Positions 1,517 to 3,366 of a stretch of 10,342 bases of DNA are shown here, one piece after another (positions within the stretch are counted from its first letter, which is position 1; the number at the start of each line of letters is the position of its first letter). The stretch lies in the IMG/VR virus record IMGVR_UViG_2526164650_000011; one strand, given 5' to 3'. The notes under the pieces are model-generated. The model ran no database searches and was not told where the DNA came from. It saw nothing but the letters and a program-made list of their open reading frames with translations. The translations under genes were made by a program, and so were the position numbers. The stretch comes from a virus. Its lineage: Duplodnaviria; Heunggongvirae; Uroviricota; Caudoviricetes.

Positions 1517-1756
1517 ATGGGTAGCATTAACCTGCGTATTGACGATGAACTTAAAGCGCGTTCTTACGCCGCGCTTGAAAAAATGGGTGTAACTCCTTCT
1601 GAAGCGCTTCGTCTCATGCTCGAGTATATCGCTGACAATGAACGCTTGCCGTTCAAACAGACACTCCTGAGTGATGAAGATGCTGAACTTGTGGAGATAG
1701 TGAAAGAACGGCTTCGTAATCCTAAGCCAGTACGTGTGACGCTGGATGAACTCTGA
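1517..1756 (+). CDS. relB: RelB antitoxin (79 aa), intact
   Basis: MGSINLRIDDELKARSYA...RNPKPVRVTLDEL matches E. coli RelB as recalled. Its TGA stop overlaps the relE ATG by 1 nt. Confidence 0.9.
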   Translation: MGSINLRIDDELKARSYAALEKMGVTPSEALRLMLEYIADNERLPFKQTLLSDEDAELVEIVKERLRNPKPVRVTLDEL

Positions 1757-1900
1757 TGGCGTATTTTCTGGATTTTGACGAGCGGGCACTAAAGGAATGG
1801 CGAAAGCTGGGCTCGACGGTACGTGAACTGAAGTGGCACACTGAATTTGGCCACCTGAACAGAGGTGATATGCTCACCTCAGAACAACACAGGTGCTCCA

Positions 1901-2203
1901 ATGAAAAAAAGAAATTTTAGCGCAGAGTTTAAACGCGAATCCGCTCAACTGGTTGTTGACCAGAAATACACGGTGGCAGATGCCGCCAAAGCTATGGATG
2001 TTGGCCTTTCCACAATGACAAGATGGGTCAAACAACTGCGTGATGAGCGTCAGGGCAAAACACCAAAAGCCTCCCCCATTACCCCGGAACAAATTGAAAT
2101 CCGTGAGCTCAGGAAAAAGCTACAACGCATTGAAATGGAGAATGAAATATTAAAAAAGGCTACCGCGCTCTTGATGTCAGACTCCCTGAACAGTTCTCGA
2201 TAA
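1901..2203 (+). CDS. IS911 OrfA (100 aa, helix-turn-helix / leucine-zipper transposase component)
   Basis: [49 protein letters not shown]... matches IS911 OrfA as recalled. Confidence 0.9.
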
Positions 2204-3069
2204 TCGGGAAACTCAGAGCGCATTATCCTGTGGTCACACTCTGCCATGTGTTCGGGGTTCATCGCAGCAGCTACAGATACTGGAAAAACCGTCCTGAAAA
2301 ACCAGACGGCAGACGGGCTGTATTACGCAGTCAGGTACTTGAGCTACATGGCATCAGCCACGGTTCGGCCGGAGCAAGAAGCATCGCCACAATGGCAACC
2401 CGGAGAGGCTACCAGATGGGACGCTGGCTTGCTGGCAGGCTCATGAAAGAGCTGGGGCTGGTCAGCTGTCAGCAGCCGACTCACCGGTATAAACGTGGTG
2501 GTCATGAACATGTTGCTATCCCTAACTACCTTGAAAGGCAGTTCGCCGTGACCGAGCCAAATCAGGTGTGGTGCGGTGATGTGACCTATATCTGGACGGG
2601 TAAGCGCTGGGCGTACCTCGCCGTTGTTCTCGACCTGTTCGCAAGAAAACCAGTGGGCTGGGCCATGTCGTTCTCGCCGGACAGCAGGCTCACCATGAAA
2701 GCGCTGGAAATGGCATGGGAAACCCGTGGTAAGCCCGGCGGGGTGATGTTCCACAGCGATCAGGGCAGTCATTATACGAGCAGGCAGTTCCGGCAGTTAT
2801 TGTGGCGATACCAGATCAGACAGAGTATGAGCCGGCGCGGAAACTGCTGGGATAACAGCCCAATGGAACGCTTCTTCAGGAGTCTGAAGAACGAATGGAT
2901 GCCGGTGGTGGGTTACGTAAGCTTCAGCGAGGCAGCTCACGCCATAACGGACTATATCGTTGGATATTACAGCGCACTAAGACCGCACGAATATAACGGT
3001 GGGTTACCCCCAAACGAATCGGAAAATCGATACTGGAAAAACTCTAACTCGGTGGCCAGTTTTTGTTGA
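2149..3069 (+). CDS. IS911 OrfB frame (DDE catalytic domain), expressed as an OrfAB fusion by -1 frameshift at A-AAA-AAG (2152-2158)
   Basis: The -1 frame opens after TGA at 2143-2145, and the ATT at 2149 matches the known AUU start of IS911 orfB. DDE core WCGDVTYI...FHSDQGSHY...[14 protein letters not shown] is present. Confidence 0.85.
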
Positions 3070-3366
3070 CCACTTCAAACAGTTGAAAAAGAAGCTGGTT
3101 GAAGTACTTGAGTCACCCCGGATTGAAGCAAACAAGCTCCGTGGTATGCCTGATTGTTACAAGATTAAGCTCCGGTCTTCAGGCTATCGCCTTGTATACC
3201 AGGTTATAGACGAGAAAGTTGTCGTTTTCGTGATTTCTGTTGGGAAAAGAGAACGCTCGGAAGTATATAGCGAGGCGGTCAAACGCATTCTCTGAACCAA
3301 AGCATGACATCTCTGTTTCGCACCGAAGGTGACACTTCTGCTTTGCGTTGACAGGAGAAGCAGGCT

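Follow-up and report, generated by a model that had tools for sequence, protein, structure and literature searches.

The relBE locus of a Qin-like prophage raises the question of whether an IS911 element has moved into its toxin gene, and of what has been left of the toxin-antitoxin pair. IS911 is a member of the IS3 family that was first described in Shigella dysenteriae, and a 3-bp target-site duplication is expected for this element. In this study, we analysed a whole stretch of 10,342 nucleotides (the window) and compared it with related loci. A reading made from the sequence alone had placed IS911 after relE codon 24 and had noted a clean AAC duplication. As shown in Table 1, a 1249-bp IS911 copy flanked on both sides by AAC lies within relE of a Qin-like relB-relE-hokD operon. 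By direct reading of window positions 1200-3900, the element begins with TGAAGTGG and ends with CCACTTCA. The relE start overlaps the relB stop by one base, and codon 24 (GAA) occupies 1825-1827. With the insertion lying directly behind base 1 of codon 25, the proposed position was right to within one base. The target AAC, which extends over codons 24 and 25, became duplicated on insertion, and both copies were confirmed. The RelE N-terminus MAYFLDFDERALKEWRKLGSTVRE opens the reading frame that starts at 1756, which then continues in foreign DNA up to a stop at 1920; the C-terminus QLKKKLVEVL...VKRIL resumes in frame in the 3' fragment. Thus, 1252 bp separate the two parts of relE at codon 24/25, and an intact 95-aa RelE gene translationally coupled to relB is absent. 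We are highly confident that relE, which belongs to a Qin-like cryptic prophage of one Shigella flexneri-type strain, received a complete IS911 by transposition.

Table 1. Features of the window; positions are counted from its first letter.
Feature	Position	Strand	Remarks
IS1 end	1-309		abuts IS600
IS600, 5'-truncated	310-1233		ends right at ydfV
relBE promoter	1453-1481	+	-35-like TTGCCC 1453-1458 (assigned here); 17-nt spacer; -10 GATATT 1476-1481
relO operator, four hexads	1481-1504	+	left half-site TTGTAATGACAT 1481-1492; right half-site TTGTAATTACAA 1493-1504
relB antitoxin, 79 aa	1517-1756	+	open reading frame; Pfam RelB E=1e-32; no mismatch to MG1655 relB b1564
relE 5' fragment	1756-1828	+	codons 1-24 and first base of codon 25
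Target-site duplication AAC, left copy	1826-1828		single AAC in G1663
IS911, complete, 1249 bp	1829-3077	+	99.2% full-length to PGAP-annotated IS911
IRL, 36-bp left terminal inverted repeat	1829-1864	+	inverted-repeat search; 36-bp length per literature
orfA, 100 aa	1901-2203	+	open reading frame; HTH_Tnp_1
-1 frameshift window	2137-2158	+	GGAG 2137-2140; AUU 2149-2151 in orfB frame; A AAA AAG 2152-2158
orfB frame	2149-3069	+	fused OrfAB 1901-2158 joined to 2158-3069
IRR, 36-bp right terminal inverted repeat	3042-3077	+	contains orfB stop TGA 3067-3069
Target-site duplication AAC, right copy	3078-3080		single AAC in G1663
relE 3' fragment	3081-3295	+	remainder of codon 25 to stop
hokD (relF), 51 aa	3367-3522	+	intact; Pfam HOK_GEF E=1.2e-23; no mismatch to MG1655 hokD b1562
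Terminator-like hairpin and T-run	3591-3618	+	downstream of hokD; likely operon end
Q-antiterminator-like gene	5771-6592		
tRNA-Met (CAT)	6737-6812		downstream of Q-antiterminator-like gene
tRNA-Arg (TCT)	6903-6979		downstream of Q-antiterminator-like gene
STnc100 sRNA match	7676-7865		124 bits; downstream of Q-antiterminator-like gene
IS600, second copy	9143-10342	inverted	99.7% to left copy

We investigated whether the two relE fragments are halves of one gene. The window without the IS was aligned to the annotated MG1655 Qin region over 1232-3533, an alignment that the earlier reading had proposed. Deletion of the IS and one AAC (1829-3080) restored a continuous relE frame of 288 nt encoding the 95-aa RelE, with 0 mismatches and 0 gaps against the annotated MG1655 relE (b1563). 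Over the whole aligned region there were 2 mismatches in about 1050 bases, one at 1348 in ydfV and the other at 1480, and no gap. The reconstructed empty site also gave an unbroken alignment, with 99.6-99.7% identity, to loci that are annotated as relB/relE/hokD, and at least 80% of it was present in 1162 complete E. coli genomes. Both K-12 and a near-isogenic S. flexneri genome bore out CGTGAACAGTTG as the empty site, as had been proposed.

Source-like and empty-site comparators were found through the rare ydfV allele of the window, which is carried by 7 contigs. The window was 100% identical to AFHD01000019.1 (assembly GCA_000213495.2; L025) over 6492 shared bases. S. flexneri G1663 (CP007037.1) matched the window at 100% over 310-1828 and at 99.98% over 3078-7744. 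In G1663, these matches share exactly 3 bp, and G1663 therefore has a single AAC. Three of the contigs with the ydfV allele, G1663 among them, had the same flanks and an intact 95-aa relE, and the isogenic empty site was also present in L026 and L027. A 37-nt empty-site string was found in 14 fetched loci and was missing from the window, and both junction strings occurred, among the fetched loci, only in the window and in L025. Three further IS600-ydfV-relB contexts (L030-L032), found via the Rem allele, had an intact relE.

The insertion was thus present in one (L025) of the 7 contigs with this ydfV allele. No place spanning both junctions was found in any of 5426 complete E. coli genomes. 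The left junction had no match in species-representative genomes, which are unlikely to include the insertion strain. In more than 6 kb of flanking DNA, one base differed from G1663, and the IS carried no private mutations. The near-zero divergence of the flanks, the lack of private mutations in the IS and the single carrier together demonstrate that the insertion is very recent and strain-specific. From the near-identity to G1663, we infer that the strain of assembly GCA_000213495.2 is probably S. flexneri. A candidate second case in E. coli O157:H16 (NZ_CP062876.1, L023 3004-4249) has a 91%-identical IS911 relative with the ends TGTAGTGG...CCACTACA. This case was ruled out as an unrelated event, since the IS there lies beside a complete hok locus and no relE sequence is present.

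A draft assembly is the source of the window, which holds four IS copies, and a repeat-induced misjoin might have put IS911 between two unrelated contig ends. However, each flank is exactly one half of the same gene, the duplication that they share has the 3 bp expected for IS911, and when joined they rebuild the K-12 and G1663 sequences to the base. A target-site duplication is also not a product of misjoining, so that an assembly artefact is barely credible. A 3-bp repeat alone would arise by chance in 1 of 64 cases, but the exact restoration of relE and the isogenic empty site in G1663 exclude coincidence. These results demonstrate that the insertion in relE is a genuine transposition event, neither chance nor misassembly, as the sequence-only reading had held. 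The event could also be thought of as an adaptive loss, in which selection acted against relE, for example as a costly or an anti-virulence gene, within a convergent loss of toxin-antitoxin systems in Shigella. The orphan relB would then have been kept, for instance as an anti-addiction factor against incoming RelE-type toxins. Convergent IS-driven gene loss is documented in Shigella (PMC7373316), and relB and relO are untouched. However, the insertion is found in one assembly only, and relE is intact in all other related contexts retrieved, including the near-isogenic G1663; relE, relB and hokD are not named in the text-format supplementary files of the Shigella IS survey (PMC7373316). The event is moreover so recent that there was no time for relB to decay, and the retained relB and relO therefore carry no evidence of selection. 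Selection for the loss of relE is thus very unlikely.

Another explanation places the main effect of the insertion in hokD rather than in the loss of RelE, with hokD either cut off from PrelBE or driven by a promoter in the IS. The gene is on the same strand as the IS and lies 290 bp beyond it; no promoter-like site was found between IRR and hokD, and the sole terminator-like hairpin (3591-3608) comes after hokD, as such an effect would have it. However, no plus-strand intrinsic-terminator-like site was found inside the IS or between the insertion and hokD. The 1.16 kb past the orfA stop is G-rich and has no C>G tract, and therefore no obvious Rho entry site. The IRR contains a -35-like TTGACC, but the flank offers no usable -10. 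Because no terminator-like site, obvious Rho entry site or usable outward promoter was found, read-through would be as likely as polarity. Polarity on hokD, which had been raised from the sequence, is neither supported nor excluded by it and may be called a guess, and a polar or regulatory change in hokD as the main effect is unlikely. A hybrid outward promoter using the IRR -35 (TTGACC) was also considered and dropped, as the flank has no -10 at 16-18 nt.

The preferred reading, a recent transposition into relE, leaves relB and its operator in place. The relO half-site sequences were defined by Overgaard et al. (PMC2812701), and the 'TA' and 'CT' of the -10 box have been placed at -10 to -7 (PMC2812701). 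In the window, relB, the gene of the RHH antitoxin, is identical to that of K-12, and the two abutting 12-bp half-sites are unchanged. The earlier statement that relB and its operator are intact was therefore upheld, with one correction: next to the operator on its 5' side, the -10 box has a C>T change at 1480, one base before the left half-site, and reads GATATT, compared with GATACT in K-12. Position 1480 is C in K-12 and in ten other E. coli loci, and T in G1663, whose relE is intact. As the same T is found next to an intact relE, the change predates the IS and is unrelated to the insertion. These comparisons indicate a lineage polymorphism that was present before the IS arrived.

It has been reported that the RelE R81A mutant is nontoxic (PMC2812701). 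RelE is also the co-repressor of relBE that makes RelB binding to relO cooperative, and it inhibits the degradation of RelB by Lon in vitro (PMC2812701). In the window, the relE stub reads into IRL as a 54-aa ORF (1756-1920, ending with TAG 1918-1920). The 3' fragment holds the catalytic part of the toxin but lacks its own start and ribosome-binding site: its first in-frame ATG is Met47, and a GTG at 2999 has no upstream SD-like sequence. Neither the 54-aa relE'-IS ORF nor the 98-aa 3' ORF that starts with GTG had an exact protein match on record, and these ORFs are evidently not called by gene callers. Since R81 lies downstream of the break, no active RelE would be made, and the toxin is almost certainly dead. 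The locus as it stands has no functional toxin-antitoxin pair, with RelB present and relE split. This agrees with the earlier description of a knocked-out relE and an orphan relB: what is left is a 24-codon stub, a startless 3' piece and a relB identical to that of K-12.

With the co-repressor and the protection from Lon both lost, the orphan RelB should repress PrelBE less well and be less stable. Weaker repression would let PrelBE transcription run into the IS. The stop of the relE stub lies 17 nt past the orfA ATG (1901), in another frame, and the orfA initiation region would lie in the path of ribosomes arriving from relB/relE'. A coupling of IS911 expression and transposition to the Lon/RelB stress circuit, with the transposase genes placed behind the strong stress-inducible PrelBE, is nevertheless highly improbable; if true, it would be a stress-responsive IS driver. 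The phenotypic effect of the insertion is most likely nil or slight, and the event is most likely a neutral IS hop, one of many that mark genome decay in Shigella. With G1663 as its isogenic wild type, this natural relE-null, relB-plus allele may be of use as a control already at hand when RelB autoregulation is studied in the absence of the co-repressor.

Transposases of the IS3 family share a motif of D, D, 35 residues and E, with K or R at +7. In this study, we found that the OrfAB fusion is open to 3069 and encodes 389 aa, with D227, D287, E323 and K330 (K at +7) and the Pfam domains HTH_Tnp_1 and rve (E=4.6e-32). The ends of the element include a detected 27-nt inverted repeat, match at 24 of 36 positions over the 36-bp ends and have the tips TG and CA. 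The element was 99.2% identical over 1249 of 1249 bp to copies with the PGAP name 'IS3-like element IS911 family transposase'. Those copies are annotated with a programmed frameshift and have the same CDS geometry (element positions 73-1241), and the OrfAB join here is that of the PGAP protein WP_087880099.1. Previous reports describe inverted repeats of 36 bp (PMC2909936, PMC1636345) and an OrfA of 100 aa (PMC2909936) for IS911, and frameshifting stimulated by an SD-like GGAG and a downstream stem-loop (PMC4066793). Titles in the reference list of the last paper (PMC4066793) include primary papers on AUU initiation and on a three-way-junction stimulator. The downstream structure was not significant here in single-sequence folding (z = -0.82), and the sequence at this place is identical to that of other copies. 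The claim that IS911 is fully intact therefore stands, as both inverted repeats, orfA, orfB, the slippery heptamer, GGAG, AUU and the DDE triad were all found.

Copies with the same 1249 bp (100% identity) were also found at five other chromosomal sites, which belong to G1663 and two other Shigella-associated assemblies. Three of these five copies have 3- or 4-bp duplications of their own; duplications of TCC, CCC and GCTG are seen next to copies elsewhere than in relE. The presence of the same IS sequence at several sites suggests that IS911 was recently active and is probably still active. The copy in relE can probably still move. From established knowledge of IS911, it would have reached relE by a copy-out-paste-in route through an IRR-IRL circle.

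The element resembles the published IS911 in its 36-bp imperfect inverted repeats starting with TGAAGTGG, its 100-aa OrfA, its -1 frameshift, its DDE transposase and its 3-bp duplication. In contrast, OrfAB has 382 aa in the literature and 389 aa in this 1249-bp copy. When one A was added to the A5 run at 3037-3041, OrfAB became exactly 382 aa long and ended with RYWKKL. All 12 IS911 copies examined had the 1249-bp A5 form. Since a single A gives the published length, the difference amounts to one homopolymer base, and it is a sequence variant rather than a question of family. The one-base difference in this run lies either in the published sequence or in the natural population. Compared with an IS911 copy of E. 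coli EC28, ten differences were found, all within 67 bp of orfA (window 2074-2140), and one of them changes the SD-like frameshift stimulator from GGAG in the window to GGAA in EC28. This cluster looks like a recombination patch between IS911 variants.

A previous report showed that five IS families, IS911 among them, have expanded in every Shigella species, which gives rise to strain-to-strain variation and pseudogenes (Hawkey et al. 2020, PMC7373316). The window fits this pattern of pseudogene formation, as it holds IS1, IS600 and IS911, three of the five expanded families, together with an inactivated gene; the relE insertion itself is not mentioned in the text and text-format supplementary files of that report (PMC7373316). 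A search of the literature on relE together with IS911 or Shigella found nothing relevant. The relE::IS911 allele is therefore undescribed in the literature searched, yet the process behind it is well documented and the instance an ordinary one. All of its components are already known, and no new element, mechanism or system is involved. The insertion shows, in a clean and datable way, that IS911 activity goes on in Shigella, and its significance hardly goes beyond strain bookkeeping.

The surrounding prophage DNA was compared with the relBE-hokD (relBEF) region of K-12 Qin. Both have the order ydfV, relB-relE-hokD, rem and ydfU, and the promoter, relO, relB, the relE halves and hokD are identical to those of MG1655 except for base 1480. 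Whereas relE is uninterrupted and the -10 is GATACT in K-12, relE is interrupted and the -10 is GATATT in the window, where the region is flanked by IS1 and IS600. Divergence from K-12 Qin rose from the 2 mismatches in 1232-3533 (IS removed) to 201 mismatches in 3534-5387 (about 11%). The jump at 3534 lies just past the hokD stop, so that the ydfV-relBE-hokD cassette is near-identical to K-12 and the backbone is not. This suggests a mosaic or recombination boundary at 3534. In four fetched loci (L028, L029, L033 and L035, about 2572-2784), the same Rem allele adjoins a 70-aa HOK_GEF gene call with no relBE. Only the 51-aa hokD is left in the relBE-bearing prophages, which fits hokD being a 5'-truncated hok locus. 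No RNA family of Rfam was found in the region of interest. At the left end of the window, the IS1/IS600 joint is 25 bases shorter than in G1663, and this suggests an IS1-adjacent deletion in the insertion strain. The inverted pair of IS600 copies brackets about 8 kb of prophage DNA and is a substrate for inversion. The layout of the Q-like gene, the tRNAs and STnc100 is typical of lambdoid late regions.
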